Source: a bacterium
GTDB taxonomy: Bacteria; Patescibacteriota; Andersenbacteria; UBA10190
Length of the DNA stretch: 64,000 nucleotides
Direction of reading: 5' to 3'
Assembly (NCBI GenBank): GCA_030698495.1
Contig: JAUYKA010000035.1
Location: 8,778-72,777, forward strand
Below are positions 56,127 through 61,951 of this stretch, piece after piece; position 1 is the stretch's first letter; each line of letters begins with the position of its first letter. The translations under genes were made by a program, and so were the position numbers. The notes under the pieces were generated by a model, which saw nothing but the letters and a program-made list of their open reading frames with translations, made no database searches and was not told the DNA's origin.

Positions 56127-57827
56127 CTACATCACCTCCGGCTTGCTTATACCCAGCAAATCCAGCGTTTGTCCCATCACCTTTCGCGCCGCCAGCACCA
56201 ACTGCAGACGGCTCATCCGCACTTCTTCCTTATCCGCCGCAATCACTGGCACATTCCGGTAAAAAACATGTACCGCTCGCGCCAGCTCCAGCGCATAATA
56301 AGCCAACTGCTGTGCTTCCCCACTAGCCGCAATATCCGTTATCGCCTCCGGCAACCGATACATCTGCCGCATCAACTCCAACTCCGTCGTATGTGTCAGT
56401 TCCCCGTGACTGGTCAACTTTATTTTCTCGCCGGCCCCTTCAATCACACCTAACTCCTTGGCCCGACGCAATATAGACTGCAAACGCACATACGCGTACT
56501 GCGCATAATAAACCGGGTTGCGCTCGTTTCGTTCTTTCGCCAAATTAATATCAAAATCCATGTGCGTCGTCAGCGCGTGCTGGACCATAAAGAAACGCGC
56601 GGCATCATACCCCACCTCTTCTATCAAATCACCTGGTCCGTATAAGTTCCCTCGCCGCTTGGACAACTTCACCGGCTTGCCGTCCCGCAACACGCCAATC
56701 CACTGCGCCGCCACTACGTGCAACTTACTCACGTCGCAGCCCAGCGCCTCCAGCGCCGCGCGCAGCTTCGATCCATGACCCTGATGATCCGCGCCGACAT
56801 AAGTAAAAATACCGTCGAATTTTCGGTCAAACTTGTCCTGATGATAAGCCACATCCGGCGCAATGTAAGCATATTCACCGTCGCTCTTGACAAAAATCCT
56901 GTCCTCGCTGTCGCCAAATTTCGTTGTCCGCAAATATTCCGCACCGTCTTTTTCGTAAATCATCTTTTTATCGCGCAATTTCTCGTGAACCTTCTCAACC
57001 GCTCCGCTGGTTCTTAATTTTCTCTCTGACGTCCACACATCAAACTTTATCCTTAAATCCTCCGCTATCGTTTTTTTTATCTTATCCATCATTGTATCCG
57101 CCGCCTGCTGACCCAGTTCCTCTATCAACTTCTTATCTTTTAAATCGCCCCCGGTAAACTCTCTCCCCTCGTTTTCTTTCGCGTTCTCCGCCAGTATCGT
57201 TGCCACCTCACTAATATATTCGCCCTGATAAAGCTCCTCTGGATAATCAACTTTTTCCCCTTTCCCTTCCAAAATTCTCCGCAGCGCTGATTCGCCCAAT
57301 TTCATAATCTGGCCGCCCGCGTCGTTAATGTAATATTCCCGCGTCACGTTATAGCCGGCGCAGGTCAGCACGTTAGCCAAACTGTCCACGGAAAAAGCCG
57401 TGCGCGCGTTGCCCAGCGTCAGCGGCCCGGTGGGATTAGCCGAAATAAATTCAAAATTATATTGCTTACCCCGACCAATATTTACCCCGCCGCAAATATC
57501 TTCTTCTAAAACATCGTCCAACCGCGCCGTCATCCAGCCAGGGTTCAGGCGGATATTTAAAAACCCCGGCGCCACCGCTTCCAGCTTGCCTACATATTCC
57601 TTCTTCGGCATATGGCGCGCAATAATATCCAAAATATCCAGCGGCGGCTTATCCGCGCTTTTTGTCAACGTCAAGGCCACCGGCGAAGCGTAATCGCCAT
57701 GCTCCGCTTTTTCCGTCCGCTCTACCACCACTGCTTCATTTTTAGTTTTAGGCAACTCCCCGGCCGACCGCGCTGCGGCAATGCCAGCCGCGATATCTTC
57801 AACCAAAGACTGTTTTAAATTAATCAT
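56127..57827 (-). CDS. argS: Arginyl-tRNA synthetase
   Basis: The class I HIGH region (P...GPLTLGNAR) is present. The DALR anticodon-binding C-terminus is present. The protein is 566 aa. Confidence 0.9.
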   Translation of the reverse strand: MINLKQSLVEDIAAGIAAARSAGELPKTKNEAVVVERTEKAEHGDYASPVALTLTKSADKPPLDILDIIARHMPKKEYVGKLEAVAPGFLNIRLNPGWMTARLDDVLEEDICGGVNIGRGKQYNFEFISANPTGPLTLGNARTAFSVDSLANVLTCAGYNVTREYYINDAGGQIMKLGESALRRILEGKGEKVDYPEELYQGEYISEVATILAENAKENEGREFTGGDLKDKKLIEELGQQAADTMMDKIKKTIAEDLRIKFDVWTSERKLRTSGAVEKVHEKLRDKKMIYEKDGAEYLRTTKFGDSEDRIFVKSDGEYAYIAPDVAYHQDKFDRKFDGIFTYVGADHQGHGSKLRAALEALGCDVSKLHVVAAQWIGVLRDGKPVKLSKRRGNLYGPGDLIEEVGYDAARFFMVQHALTTHMDFDINLAKERNERNPVYYAQYAYVRLQSILRRAKELGVIEGAGEKIKLTSHGELTHTTELELMRQMYRLPEAITDIAASGEAQQLAYYALELARAVHVFYRNVPVIAADKEEVRMSRLQLVLAARKVMGQTLDLLGISKPEVM

Positions 57828-57843
57828 AACCTTATATTATACC

Positions 57844-59697
57844 TTATATCTTATACCTGAACATCCTAATCGCATTCATAATCGGCAAGAAATCCGTCGC
57901 GAAGTTATAGGCCGCCGCTTCGGCCGGGCCCATCATTTTGGCGAAGACCAAATACATTCCCAGCAAATTAACCGCGCCCCAAATCACAAAATTCTGGCGG
58001 CTGATAGACACGGCAGCCTTGCCGATTTTTCTCGCCTCGGCGACTTTCATTAAATCATCCTGCATTAACGCCACATCCGCCGCTTCTATCGCCGCGTCCG
58101 ATCCCACCGCCCCCATCGCCACGCCAATATCCGCCAGCGCCAAAGCAGCCGCGTCGTTGACTCCATCACCCACCATCACCAGCTTACCCGGACGCTTCAA
58201 TAATGCTTTGACCCGTTCCAGTTTATCCGCCGGAGTCAGATTCGCCGCGAAAGAATCCAATTTCAGATCACCGGCCACTTTTCCCGCCACTTTATCATTG
58301 TCTCCCGTTAACATCACCATATATTCCATCCCTTCGCGGCGCAGCGCCGCCAGTGCCGCGCGCGCTTGCGGCCTTATCGCGTCGGCACAAACAATCACCC
58401 CCGCCAGCCCTTGGCCGCGGCCAACATAAACCAGCGCCCCCGCTTGACGACTCTGTTGGTCATCAACCGCCCGTTCTTGTTCATCCGTCACTACAACACC
58501 TTCTTTTTCCACGTAATCCCGCCGACCGCAATATACCTTTTCTTCACCGTATTGCGCCCAGCTTCCCTGCCCGGCTACCTGACCGAATTTCTTCGGTTCA
58601 TCCCAGGCAATACCCCTTGCCTTGGCATAATCGAGTATCGCCCGGGCCAACAAATGTGACGAGAAAGAATCTGTCGCCGCCGCCATCTTTATTACCTCCT
58701 CCTTTGTAAACTTGCCGAAAGTAATTACATCAATAACCTTCACTCTGCCAGCAGTTAATGTCCCCGTCTTATCGAAAACAACTGTTTTGGCTTTCGTTAA
58801 TCCTTCCAGGAACGCGCCGCCCTTGACGATGATGCCGCGCCGCGCCGCCCTCCCCAGCGCCGCCGAAAATGTCAACGGCACCGCCACGGCAATATCGTCG
58901 GCACACGCCACCAACAGCAACGCCAGCACTAAACGTAAATCCCTCGTTGTCACGTACAGCACTATCGCCGCGGTAAAAACAATCACAATATATCCGGCCG
59001 CGAACCGACTGCCCAAAGTCTGTATAGGCCCCTTACTATCCCGCGCGCTTTTAACCAGCTTCACCATTTTCTCAAAAGTCGTATCTTTCCCCACTTTTTC
59101 CGCCCGCACCACTATTGTCCCTTCCACTACTACCGTCGCGCTTAATACTTTTTGTCCGACACCCCGCGACACCGGTAAAGACTCACCCGTCAAAGACGCC
59201 TGATCAATCGATGCCGCGCCCTCTACTGCCTCACCGTCCACCGGCACCTGCTCACCCAACTGCACCACCACTAAATCGCCGACTCTAACCCGGCCAATCG
59301 GCAGCATCACTATCGTTCCGTCAAGACGTCTGATTCTAGCCTGATGAGGACGCAGTTTCAATAAACCCGCAATCGCCGTCCGCGATTTACCCTCCGTATA
59401 TGCGGAAAAAATCCTTGCCGCCGTTAACATTAAATTAATAAATACTGCTGATGCCCATTCCGCCGCCAACAACGACGCCACTAGCGCCACGCTGGCCAGT
59501 AAATCAACGGTTATTTCCCGCCGTTTTAGCGCCTGCCAGGCGCTAACCACTACCGGAAAGGTTGCCAGTCCGGCTATCGCCACTAAAACCGTTTCGTTAA
59601 ACTCACGCGGCAAAAAACCAAGATAATAATTCACCAGCACCGCTACCAGTGTCGCGGCTAAATACTTATCAATTCTTTTCCAATTTATTCGCCTCAT
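57844..59697 (-). CDS. P-type ATPase with P1B heavy-metal-type topology. It has no N-terminal metal-binding domain and an atypical C-A-D at the TM CPC position.
   Basis: DKTGTLT, GDGVNDAAALA and a TGES-like region are present. The TM4 sequence VACADDIAVAVP aligns to the P1B IACPCALGLATP. Confidence 0.8.
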   Translation of the reverse strand: MRRINWKRIDKYLAATLVAVLVNYYLGFLPREFNETVLVAIAGLATFPVVVSAWQALKRREITVDLLASVALVASLLAAEWASAVFINLMLTAARIFSAYTEGKSRTAIAGLLKLRPHQARIRRLDGTIVMLPIGRVRVGDLVVVQLGEQVPVDGEAVEGAASIDQASLTGESLPVSRGVGQKVLSATVVVEGTIVVRAEKVGKDTTFEKMVKLVKSARDSKGPIQTLGSRFAAGYIVIVFTAAIVLYVTTRDLRLVLALLLVACADDIAVAVPLTFSAALGRAARRGIIVKGGAFLEGLTKAKTVVFDKTGTLTAGRVKVIDVITFGKFTKEEVIKMAAATDSFSSHLLARAILDYAKARGIAWDEPKKFGQVAGQGSWAQYGEEKVYCGRRDYVEKEGVVVTDEQERAVDDQQSRQAGALVYVGRGQGLAGVIVCADAIRPQARAALAALRREGMEYMVMLTGDNDKVAGKVAGDLKLDSFAANLTPADKLERVKALLKRPGKLVMVGDGVNDAAALALADIGVAMGAVGSDAAIEAADVALMQDDLMKVAEARKIGKAAVSISRQNFVIWGAVNLLGMYLVFAKMMGPAEAAAYNFATDFLPIMNAIRMFRYKI

Positions 59698-59776
59698 AAG
59701 CCTTCACTATACTATATTTATAACTTCTTCGGATAAAAAAAGAGCCCCGCCCTCAAGCGAAGCTCGGTGCAGCCAT

Positions 59777-60157
59777 CTACTCCGTCTTTACTTTCGGCCA
59801 CTGCGGCAAATCAGATGGCATTGGCAGCGGTTTTCTGGGCGAATCCGGCAGAAACTTGCGATACAAAAGCTTTACCAACTCACAAGCGCCGCACCGCCAA
59901 CACAATCTATAGACACCGATGTACACCCACCTGTCATCGTCCGGATGTCCTGTTTTGAGCCACTTCTGATACGTCAACCCGCTGCCGCAACAACCGCACC
60001 GACCGCGCCAATCGCTGATTACCCGCCACAACCAAAATAGCCAATATCCTCCCAACAGCGCCGCCAACAAGAAGAAAAACGACAAGTGAATCGCCGCCAA
60101 AAAGACCAGAGTCAACCCCACTGCCGCCGCCAGATGAATCAAAAACCAGCGTCCCAT
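59777..60157 (-). CDS. Two-TM membrane protein with a cytoplasmic Cys-rich domain (putative zinc ribbon)
   Basis: GRCGCCGSG and CWRCGAC clusters follow two hydrophobic helices. It lies immediately upstream of the P-type ATPase gene. Confidence 0.5.
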   Translation of the reverse strand: MGRWFLIHLAAAVGLTLVFLAAIHLSFFFLLAALLGGYWLFWLWRVISDWRGRCGCCGSGLTYQKWLKTGHPDDDRWVYIGVYRLCWRCGACELVKLLYRKFLPDSPRKPLPMPSDLPQWPKVKTE

Positions 60158-60270: not shown

Positions 60271-60501
60271 ATGTACTCCCGCCGCTTGGAAATATTTCTT
60301 GAGTTTTTAATCTTCGGAATTATTATGGGTGTAATCGAAGACCTTATCGCTATTACGCTAGTCACCAAGGACCCTATTACCTGGCGTACCTTTATCGTCG
60401 CTACTGCTGTCGCCATTCCCTTCGCTTTTCTCGGCGAATATATTGTCGACCGTAAACACCTTATCCCCGTTAGACCAACCGAAAAAGAAAAACGCCGCTA
60501 G
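60271..60501 (+). CDS. Small two-TM hypothetical protein (76 aa)
   Basis: The frame is open and two hydrophobic helices are present. Confidence 0.4.
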   Translation: MYSRRLEIFLEFLIFGIIMGVIEDLIAITLVTKDPITWRTFIVATAVAIPFAFLGEYIVDRKHLIPVRPTEKEKRR

Positions 60502-60658: not shown

Positions 60659-61951
60659 TTAAAGCTCAAACTCCTCCGAGTAAATATCTTTTGCTGCCAC
60701 TCCCACTTCCCGCAATTGACGGCGCAAACTGGCCATCATTGGCAAAGGACCGCACAGGAAAAACGACTTCCCCGGCAAATCCTCACTCAATATCTCCCTT
60801 ATTCTTGCCACCGTTATCCTACCGTAGGTATCGGAAAACCAGTTAAATACTCTTAAGCTACCACTGGTACCTGCCAAGGCATCCGTCAAAGCAATTGCGT
60901 CATCTTTATTGCGCGTGGCGTAAAAAAGATCCACGACTGGAGCTTTCTCACCGCCGTAGCGCATCTGTTTCGCCATACTGATAAACGGCGTAATGCCGAT
61001 GCCGCCCGCGATCCACACTTGTCTTTTTGCGTCAACATTACGCGGCCAGAAACGTCCGTACGGACCCTGCACTCGCACTAATGTTCCCGGTCGCACCTGC
61101 CTTAGCTGGCTCGTAAAATTTCCCAGATTCTTCACCGTCACCGCCAATATTTTCTCTGCCGGATGTGAACTCATGGAAAACGGGTGCGCCTCCGCCAACG
61201 CTCCCGTGCCGACAAAACTAAACCAGGCAAACTGTCCCGGATAGTACGGCATTCTCTCTCCTCGCGCCGTCATTAAAACCCGGAAGATACTACCGTTTAT
61301 CCCTAGTACACCCTTAACTTCATATACATATTTACGATGCTTATTAAGCACCGAGTGATAAACAAAAAATACTAGCGCCGAAACAACCAGCGCCAGCATG
61401 TATCCGCGCAACCATATATTTCGCGATATGTCGCTGGGCATCAATAAAATATGTAAACCGGCCAAGAAAAAAGCCAACCCCAAAAACTTATGGGTAAACT
61501 TCCAAAGCTGATACCCCGGACGAAAATAAAAAGTCAGAACCAGCAGAATAATCATTAACCCCAGCGCCAACCAGCCTAGCGCTATCGGCAAGCTGGCTGC
61601 CGGCCAAACTGACAATGCCGCGTCTCGTATTGAAAACGGCAACAGCTTTACCGCCGATAGTACCGGATGGAGTAAAAGCAGCACCAGCGCTGTGCCTCCC
61701 AATAAATGATGGATCACATACATCCGGCTTAAACCCCCGAAATAGTCTTCAAAAAAAGACATGCGCGCGCCTAAAATCAGGACAACCGTAAACAACGCCA
61801 TACCAGTCAATCCGGCCAGCTGCGCCAAACTAGTTAGCGAATTGGTAAAATCGCTAAAGCGCTGCGACCAAGGCAGCATCGCGCTCCACAACAACGCCGG
61901 TATGACCGTTACCGCGAATACCGCCGCCGGCCCCCAGTTTTTCTCCAACAT
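60659..61951 (-). CDS. Ferric-reductase/NOX-like flavocytochrome with an N-terminal 6-TM ferric reductase domain and C-terminal FAD- and NAD-binding domains
   Basis: An HPFS-type FAD motif (AHPFSMSS) is present. GPYG and an IAGGIGITPFISM NAD(P)-binding block are present. The N-terminal half is polytopic. Confidence 0.7.
   Translation of the reverse strand: MLEKNWGPAAVFAVTVIPALLWSAMLPWSQRFSDFTNSLTSLAQLAGLTGMALFTVVLILGARMSFFEDYFGGLSRMYVIHHLLGGTALVLLLLHPVLSAVKLLPFSIRDAALSVWPAASLPIALGWLALGLMIILLVLTFYFRPGYQLWKFTHKFLGLAFFLAGLHILLMPSDISRNIWLRGYMLALVVSALVFFVYHSVLNKHRKYVYEVKGVLGINGSIFRVLMTARGERMPYYPGQFAWFSFVGTGALAEAHPFSMSSHPAEKILAVTVKNLGNFTSQLRQVRPGTLVRVQGPYGRFWPRNVDAKRQVWIAGGIGITPFISMAKQMRYGGEKAPVVDLFYATRNKDDAIALTDALAGTSGSLRVFNWFSDTYGRITVARIREILSEDLPGKSFFLCGPLPMMASLRRQLREVGVAAKDIYSEEFEL

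Follow-up and report, generated by a model that had tools for sequence, protein, structure and literature searches.

A P1B-scaffold P-type ATPase with a Cys-Ala-Asp motif in M4 and its clade in Patescibacteria

P-type ATPases of the P1B class are divided into seven subgroups by the motif in transmembrane (TM) helix M4 (PMC13460109; also PMC4932525, PMC7558416), and subgroup signatures in M4, M5, and M6 serve to predict the transported metal. The M4 motif is CPC in P1B-1 and P1B-2, CPH in P1B-3, SPC in P1B-4, PCP in P1B-5, SCA in P1B-6, which also carries N-x18-H-N-x-(S/T) between M5 and M6, and CSC in P1B-7 (PMC13460109). P1B-5 to P1B-7 are barely characterised, and the CSC and SCA subgroups lack the proline of the M4 tripeptide, which is thus not strictly universal in P1B pumps (PMC13460109). 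More generally, one to three prolines normally interrupt TM4 of P-type pumps (PMC10654040). Here we describe an ATPase encoded on the minus strand of a 64,000-nucleotide stretch of bacterial DNA (contig JAUYKA010000035.1, positions 8,778 to 72,777; hereafter the window), in which this tripeptide reads C-A-D. The ATPase probably represents a large, unclassified P1B-scaffold subgroup, the CAD clade, that extends across the Patescibacteria, or candidate phyla radiation (CPR).

The CAD ATPase and its transmembrane motifs

The gene and the motifs on which the comparison rests are as follows.

57844..59697, minus strand: P1B-scaffold P-type ATPase of the CAD clade, 617 amino acids (aa), recognised from its open reading frame (ORF), TIGR01525 match, AlphaFold2 (AF2) model, and Foldseek comparison
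59179..59190, minus strand: TGES, the dephosphorylation motif of the A domain, residues 170-173 (translation); G171 and E172 invariant in the clade
58876..58911, minus strand: M4 motif VACADDIAVAVP, residues 263-274 (translation, alignments); C265-A266-D267 replaces C-P-C, D268 follows, and P274 is kept
58759..58773, minus strand: DKTGT phosphorylation motif, residues 309-313, with D309 (translation); invariant in the clade
58138..58170, minus strand: GDGVNDAAALA hinge motif of the P domain, residues 510-520 (translation, clade alignment)
57958..57981, minus strand: M5 motif W573-x3-N577-x2-G580, found in 120/120 homologues; W573, N577, and G580 invariant
57883..57909, minus strand: M6 motif Y597-N598-F-A-T601-D602-F-L-P605; [YFW]N..TD..P in 120/120 homologues

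In a homologue search, a protein from a Candidatus Andersenbacteria metagenome-assembled genome (MAG) matched the ATPase at 100% identity, which implies that the window comes from a Patescibacteria/CPR genome. Its translation contains all of the P-type superfamily motifs (DKTGT, TGES, TGDN at residues 464-467, and GDGxNDxP/A), and its Pfam matches were confined to E1-E2_ATPase and Hydrolase, with no HMA domain. Among NCBIfam models, the protein exceeded the cutoffs of the P-type superfamily (TIGR01494; 210 bits vs a cutoff of 62), the P1B heavy-metal family (TIGR01525; 470.7 vs 346.25 bits), and the Cd family, a P1B-2 model (TIGR01512; 392.7 vs 313.5 bits). It fell under those of the Cu model (TIGR01511; 327 vs 397), the ZntA equivalog (NF033775; 275 vs 1240), the CopA and KdpB equivalogs, and every P2 and P3 equivalog, and the P2 models were far out of reach (TIGR01116, 79 bits vs 703; TIGR01522, 112 bits vs 798). 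The TIGR01525 score places the ATPase in P1B, and not in a non-metal P-type subgroup, an outcome that the original prediction had named as one that would overturn it.

The AF2 model, which was computed from a 43-sequence clade alignment (mean predicted local distance difference test score, 86.4), contained eight TM helices (residues 6-26, 31-58, 64-77, 81-113, 228-251, 254-286, 550-585, and 591-613). They follow the P1B order of MA and MB, M1-M2, A domain, M3-M4, P and N domains, and M5-M6, and the best Foldseek matches of the model in the PDB were LpCopA (TM-score 0.86), SsZntA (0.82-0.84), and sCoaT (0.79). These results bear out the P-type hallmarks (TGES, DKTGT, and GDGVNDAAALA in translation) and the 8-TM P1B layout that had been read from the sequence originally. 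The lack of an N-terminal HMA/CxxC domain, claimed at the same time, is upheld by the Pfam search and proved to be family-wide: none of the 120 closest homologues (46-53% identity, 586-682 aa) has CxxC within its first 120 residues, and a His-rich stretch near the N-terminus is likewise missing from all of them. Because the ORF opens at the first start codon downstream of an in-frame stop, no hidden N-terminal metal-binding domain is possible upstream. The HMA-like motif G-M-x-C-x-x-C is absent from every frame of the window, and at its other end the ATPase terminates four residues past M6. In the N domain, residues 346-349 (58651-58662, minus strand) read SSHL, where 118 of 120 close homologues have S-x-H-P, the SEHPL-type motif of P1B nucleotide-binding domains.

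When the ATPase was aligned with PDB sequences by phmmer, C265-A266-D267 fell onto S-P-C of sCoaT (7qbz) and C-P-C of A. fulgidus CopA. As had been proposed, the tripeptide has lost the first M4 proline, here an Ala, while the downstream P274 is retained, and the Cys-containing tripeptide around the M4 proline by which P1B pumps are recognised (CPC, CPH, SPC, TPC/PCP) is reduced to a single Cys. CADD occurs in 118 of the 120 closest homologues, the remaining two reading SADD and SAED and none CPC or CPH, and a DNA-pattern scan of metagenome contigs recovered it in all complete ATPases of 85 loci. A sequencing error or strain mutation as the source of C-A-D is ruled out by this conservation. 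In the clade alignment, A266 and P274 are invariant and C265, D267, and D268 are at least 90% conserved; the other TM residues that are invariant or at least 90% conserved are W573, N577, and G580 in M5 and N598, F599, T601, D602, P605, and N608 in M6.

The secondary structure assigned by DSSP to the AF2 model is interrupted at residues 264-266 in M4 and at residue 602 in M6, so that M4, despite the loss of its first proline, is predicted to unwind where it usually does. Loss of the triad proline was shared with CSC-type (P1B-7-like) and CAC-type relatives from the same searches, so that it is not unique to these ATPases and has precedent. The clade bears on whether helix unwinding requires the first M4 proline.

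A sequence-based ligand map was obtained by aligning the clade profile with LpCopA (3rfu). It placed C382, P383, and C384 of LpCopA at C265, A266, and D267, and N689, M717, and S721 at N577, N598, and D602, and the clade has Cys, Asp, Asn, Asn, and Asp where CopA has its canonical ligands. Among all gathered sequences, the M6 motif [YFW]-N-x-x-T-D-x-x-P was present in 205 of 210 CAD-type proteins compared to 1 of 178 non-CAD P1B proteins, the single case being a divergent C-I-D-E member. Such co-occurrence between M4 and M6 would be expected if the two motifs belonged to a single coherent binding site. It appears that the soft ligands of copper and zinc pumps have been replaced in the clade by oxygen ligands, with one thiol kept.

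With its catalytic motifs all intact, the ATPase is likely to be a functional member of the clade. The contrary view, that the pump has degenerated or no longer transports, perhaps because the gene is decaying in a reduced genome, could point to the missing triad proline and to SSHL in the window copy. We consider this view the least credible of those weighed here, since the site residues are strongly conserved in hundreds of sequences, down to ≈34% identity, the proteins are uniform in length, and the fold is confidently predicted.

The CAD clade and the described subgroups

In an exhaustive search of 50%-identity cluster representatives, the CAD motif persisted to ≈34% identity (≈360 bits), below which CPC, CSC, SPC, APC, CPG, and PCP types appeared. 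The scan of metagenome contigs yielded at least 119 loci with a CAD-type ATPase; at least 85 of these ATPases are complete (at least 590 aa), and nearly all of them are 604-650 aa long. A clade-profile search of GTDB genome contigs returned two CAD loci (L005 and L006, the latter in a Patescibacteria group MAG), and its other matches were to the generic GDGVNDA pattern. Judged by the source names of the sequences, the named clade members are all Patescibacteria (Andersenbacteria, Moranbacteria/Moraniibacteriota, Uhrbacteria, Pacebacteria, Paceibacterota, Minisyncoccia, and the Parcubacteria group). In a crude neighbour-joining (NJ) tree of 141 core sequences with 50 bootstraps, the 29 CAD-type representatives formed one bipartition in 41 of the 50 bootstraps, apart from the CPC, SPC, and APC types. 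In this tree the PCP type lies nearest, followed by a mixed group with the CSC and CAC types among its members, the deep relations being weak. A literature search that included work on FUPA families and on CPR P1B pumps found no publication describing the clade.

The same searches brought up other M4 types. One further P1B-like group, with F-[TG]-S-P-[AL]-E-L in M4 and H-[LA]-x-[PS]-D in M6, also lies outside the seven published subgroups; its members (P0181, P0192, P0360, P0361, P0366, P0367, and P0372) are ≈610-640 aa long and have no HMA domain, and one is named Cellulomonas sp. A C-P-G type with H-E-[AG]-S, in Micrococcales and others, and a G-A-C-G type were also seen.

P1B-4 pumps (sCoaT, CzcP, PfeT, CtpD) share with the ATPase a short N-terminus without HMA and eight TM helices, and sCoaT is both the closest solved sequence (274 bits) and a match in the Glu-Trp that opens M2. 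In contrast, the P1B-4 signatures S-P-C in M4 and H-E-G-x-T in M6 are absent from the ATPase; the clade has C-A-D-D and [YF]-N-x-x-T-D-x-x-P at these places, and SPC-type sequences fall outside the CAD bipartition. P1B-1 pumps (LpCopA, 3rfu/4bbj, and AfCopA) offer the best structural match, the same helix order, and six alignable ligand positions. However, Cys384, Met717, and Ser721 of LpCopA correspond to Asp, Asn, and Asp in the clade and the triad Pro to Ala, and the ATPase has no HMA domain and scores below the Cu model; of the P1B-1 signature (CPC, Y-N in M5, M-x2-S-S in M6, and HMA), the M5 Asn alone is kept. Where P1B-2 pumps have CPC, Lys in M5, and D-x-G in M6, the ATPase has CAD, W-x3-N-x2-G, and N-x-x-T-D.

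P1B-5 (PCP) and P1B-7 (CSC) pumps are the nearest neighbours of the clade by distance and in the NJ tree, although these sister relations are weakly resolved. PCP-type proteins resemble the CAD ATPases in length (≈610-620 aa), in the lack of an N-terminal domain, and in having acidic M6 residues (Q-E-x-x-D), and CSC-type proteins also lack the triad proline. By contrast, M4 reads T/S-P-C-P in the former and C-S-C in the latter, neither of which is found in the ATPase, M6 reads Q-E-x-x-D and A-Q-S-L-P-D, respectively, and CSC-type proteins usually carry an HMA domain (PF00403). Many P1B-5 members have a C-terminal hemerythrin-like domain, and PCP-type sequences form a separate, neighbouring group in the tree. 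The SCA motif and H-N hallmark of P1B-6 are also absent, the window protein reading A-C-A-D-D and Y-N-F-A-T-D, and no sequences lie farther away in the tree than the F-S-C-G and H-N-type representatives. S-C-A-D-D is found in a few clade members; this may be a coincidence of register with the 'SCA' of P1B-6, a subgroup that we know through reviews, and early members of the clade may have been lumped there.

Taken as quoted in reviews, no published P1B-1 to P1B-7 motif is fitted by C-A-D-D together with N-x-x-T-D-x-x-P. The original caution that substrate specificity is not predictable from the motifs is therefore sustained, as the set matches none of the seven published subgroups (PMC13460109). 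The clade signature of C-A-D-D, W-x3-N, and N-x-x-T-D-x-x-P stands outside the published scheme and is restricted to Patescibacteria among named members. Database names of the homologues are 'cation-translocating P-type ATPase' or, by homology transfer, 'Cd2+/Zn2+-exporting' and 'Cu+ transporter'. Because the signature lies outside the scheme, thousands of CPR genes labelled "Cd2+/Zn2+-" or "Cu+-exporting ATPase" are probably mis-assigned.

Such labels would be right if the protein were an ordinary Zn2+/Cd2+/Co2+ exporter of P1B-2 or P1B-4-like type, in which C-A-D would form a thiophilic site from Cys and carboxylates, comparable to the Cys, Cys, and Asp of ZntA. Passing the Cd-family cutoff, the JGI name Cd2+/Zn2+-exporting ATPase on several homologues, the proximity to sCoaT with its 'EW' start of M2, and the conservation of Cys265 in 118 of 120 homologues are in keeping with this annotation. 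Yet the ATPase has neither a second Cys nor the Lys in M5 and D-x-G in M6 that mark P1B-2, and it lacks H-E-G-x-T, the M6 signature of P1B-4. In addition, Cys is changed to Ser in two members, the tree sets the clade apart from the CPC, SPC, and APC types, and the gene does not lie in a resistance island. We therefore regard an ordinary exporter as possible and rather doubtful.

Proposed mechanism and candidate cargo

We favour the interpretation that the CAD ATPases are a P1B subgroup that probably exports, in a housekeeping role, a divalent cation between intermediate and hard in character. The P1B chassis would be kept (MA, MB, M1-M6, the A, P, and N domains, and all catalytic motifs) and the transmembrane ion site rebuilt, with C265-A-D267-D268 in M4, N577 in M5, and N598, T601, and D602 in M6 as its putative ligands. 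The pump would run an ordinary Post-Albers cycle, in which a cation from the cytoplasm would bind the M4/M5/M6 site in E1, D309 would be phosphorylated with occlusion of the ion, and the ion would then be released outside in E2P. It would be a constitutive housekeeping pump, probably co-transcribed with argS, a role suggested by the lack of a metal-binding regulatory domain and of a chaperone or metal-sensing regulator nearby.

As to cargo, the motifs make Mn2+, Fe2+, Zn2+, or Co2+ our first choice and Ca2+ our second; Cu+, Ag+, Cd2+, and Pb2+ seem less likely. A divalent transition metal is placed first because a near-invariant Cys is retained on a P1B scaffold.

Ca2+ enters through a likeness to P2A Ca2+ ATPases (SERCA, LMCA1, PMR1/SPCA). 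These pumps also have a carboxylate ahead of the phosphorylated Asp: D267 precedes D309 by 42 residues, the spacing that separates Glu309 from Asp351 in SERCA1a. In M6, N598-x-x-T601-D602 (in the clade, N-x-x-T-D-x-x-P) has the same spacing as Asn796, Thr799, and Asp800 of SERCA, residues that make up Ca2+ sites I and II with Glu309 (PMC6879984), and an Asp in TM6 is described for all Ca2+ efflux pumps (PMC10654040). Unlike the ATPase, P2A pumps have 10 TM helices, the Cation_ATPase_N and Cation_ATPase_C domains, and P-E-G-L-P in M4, none of which is present in the window protein. The P2 resemblance of M6 is at the level of the motif only, and would speak at most to how the site works and not to membership.

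This resemblance raises the alternative that the protein pumps a non-transition cation (Ca2+, Mg2+, Na+, or H+) through a P2-like carboxylate/amide site re-invented on a P1B chassis. We judge it unlikely: the SERCA-like spacing, the TM6 Asp, and the housekeeping gene context agree with it, but a near-invariant site Cys would be unusual for Ca2+, Mg2+, or Na+, the M5-M6 segment has no detectable similarity to P2 pumps, and MgtA-like or PMR1-like pumps stand beside the CAD pump at 6 loci. Convergence of the CAD site on a P2-type, oxygen-only geometry that carries an alkaline-earth or alkali cation (Ca2+, Mg2+, Na+) is entertained only tentatively. If it were true, the clade would be the first P1B ATPase for a cation other than a transition metal, would serve many CPR bacteria as their main cation pump, and would amount to an eighth P1B subgroup bridging 'heavy-metal' and 'hard-cation' pumps.

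Several points weigh against the preferred reading of a rebuilt site in an unclassified subgroup. Cys265 and the TIGR01512 score are compatible with an ordinary Zn2+/Cd2+ pump, the ligands were assigned from the CopA alignment and not from coordinates, and the unclassified status of the clade was judged from P1B motif lists quoted in later reviews. When the M5-M6 segment alone was searched against the PDB, it matched no P2 ATPase and only LpCopA weakly. The MgtA/PMR1-like pumps that adjoin some CAD pumps somewhat disfavour Mg2+ or Ca2+ as the cargo there, if mildly, and the window protein deviates, to a small extent, from S-x-H-P in its N domain.

The scaffold and mechanism of the CAD pump are conventional; the site signature and the phylogenetic restriction are what deserve attention. 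By placing mostly oxygen ligands on a P1B scaffold, the clade offers a natural experiment in re-coding the ion selectivity of P-type pumps. Since CPR bacteria have few transporters, the cargo of a near-housekeeping CAD pump would also inform their cation economy.

Genomic context and the small upstream ORF

Two further features lie upstream of the ATPase.

59777..60157, minus strand: orphan ORF of 126 aa with an N-terminal hydrophobic hairpin followed by a Cys-rich part (ORF list, translation)
59732..59765, minus strand: terminator-like hairpin (10-pair stem, 6 G-C) with a T7 run, between the stop of the small ORF and the start of the ATPase

The ATPase is set in a long run of minus-strand housekeeping genes. 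The arginyl-tRNA synthetase gene argS (56127-57827, minus strand) starts 16 bp past the ATPase stop codon, and is followed by a glycosyltransferase-like ORF and then by isoleucyl-tRNA synthetase. No terminator-like site was found in the gap between the ATPase and argS (57828-57843), which, with its short length, suggests that the two are co-transcribed. On the upstream side, the hairpin and T7 run are followed by an AT-rich TATAAATATAGTATAGT stretch (TATAAAT/TATAGT) and a GAAGG Shine-Dalgarno-like site ahead of the ATPase ATG. This arrangement makes it more likely that the ATPase is transcribed from its own promoter and on into argS, rather than together with the small ORF.

The original prediction described the product of the small ORF as a two-helix, Cys-rich membrane protein that could supply metal binding or sensing in trans. 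The description holds in part: the translation has six Cys in zinc-ribbon-like spacing (C54-x-C56-C57 and C86-x2-C89-x2-C92) and ≈50 hydrophobic N-terminal residues in which a TM hairpin of two helices is plausible. That the ORF is a real gene is not certain, and it is possibly not even expressed; its codon-usage score is 0.03 bits per codon vs 0.33 for the ATPase, with the annotated frame barely the best of six, it matched no Pfam or NCBIfam model, and a single-sequence AF2 model was confident for residues 2-54 only and of low confidence in the Cys-rich part.

The proposed role in trans did not survive comparison. In favour of a dedicated chaperone or sensor of the pump, the two genes are neighbours on the same strand, 79 bp apart, the small ORF has six Cys in a zinc-ribbon-like arrangement, and at one other locus (L197) an unrelated zinc-ribbon, 2-TM ORF precedes a CAD ATPase. 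But the small ORF has no homologue besides itself among 5.8 billion proteins, and it is missing from five inspected homologue neighbourhoods. Of 75 loci at which the ATPase has an upstream neighbour, only two, the window and L197, show a small Cys-rich ORF on the same strand in that position, and the two ORFs have unrelated sequences. Together with the terminator-like hairpin and the weak coding signal, these results make a dedicated partner very unlikely, and metal binding or sensing in trans by this protein is an explanation to which we give hardly any weight. The L197 protein (123 aa, 6 bp upstream of the ATPase) has an N-terminal zinc ribbon (CTVC...CPNC) and then two TM helices, an order that mirrors that of the small ORF in the window.

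Neighbours were clustered for 83 loci with complete CAD ATPases, with up to three genes taken per side. The most recurrent family, generic ABC transporters, was found at no more than 14 of the 83 loci, and the other recurrent neighbours were alanyl-tRNA synthetase-like, DedA/VTT, TGT, cyclophilin, DUF1003, and similar proteins; no partner is conserved. No HMA chaperone, ArsR/MerR/CsoR-type regulator, or cation diffusion facilitator (CDF) partner adjoined the ATPases of these loci, and searches of the window and of those 19 CAD loci whose 5' gaps are longest detected no Rfam family except tRNA, and hence no riboswitch. The median gap upstream of the CAD ATPases is 32 bp. To judge from gene order, this is the context of a constitutive pump and not of a resistance island.

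At 6 of the 83 loci (L085, 6645-9062; L126, 5011-7479; L086, 3527-6055; L136, 3408-5960; and truncated copies at L117 and L186), another P-type ATPase, 805-850 aa long, is encoded on the same strand 2-69 bp downstream of the CAD ATPase. The M4 of this second pump reads VPEELP or VPEALP, and it is either PMR1/Ca-like or MgtA-like (586.6 bits, just below the cutoff of 610.75). These pairs may be cation-pump operons.

Further upstream in the window, a 430-aa ORF (60659-61951, minus strand) encodes a TM domain of ferric-reductase-like type (PF01794) joined to domains that bind FAD and NAD. Bacterial NOX/Fre-type enzymes are built in this way, and such a protein is unexpected in a presumed fermentative CPR genome. 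In two of its TM helices, paired His residues are spaced 13-14 residues apart (IHH...H and H...H), a spacing also found in bis-haem ferric reductase domains. A functional tie between this gene, 500 bp further upstream, and the ATPase was considered and rejected, as the association did not recur in the 83 neighbourhoods. The 500-bp gap between it and the small Cys-rich ORF holds a plus-strand ORF of 76 aa (60271-60501) with two hydrophobic helices, no Pfam match, and a codon score (0.05) as weak as that of the Cys-rich ORF. Across the window, GC skew on the plus strand is strongly and uniformly negative from about position 2000 (≈-0.15 to -0.33 per 2 kb) and nearly all long ORFs are on the minus strand, a combination of composition and orientation that fits a single replichore with extreme strand bias.

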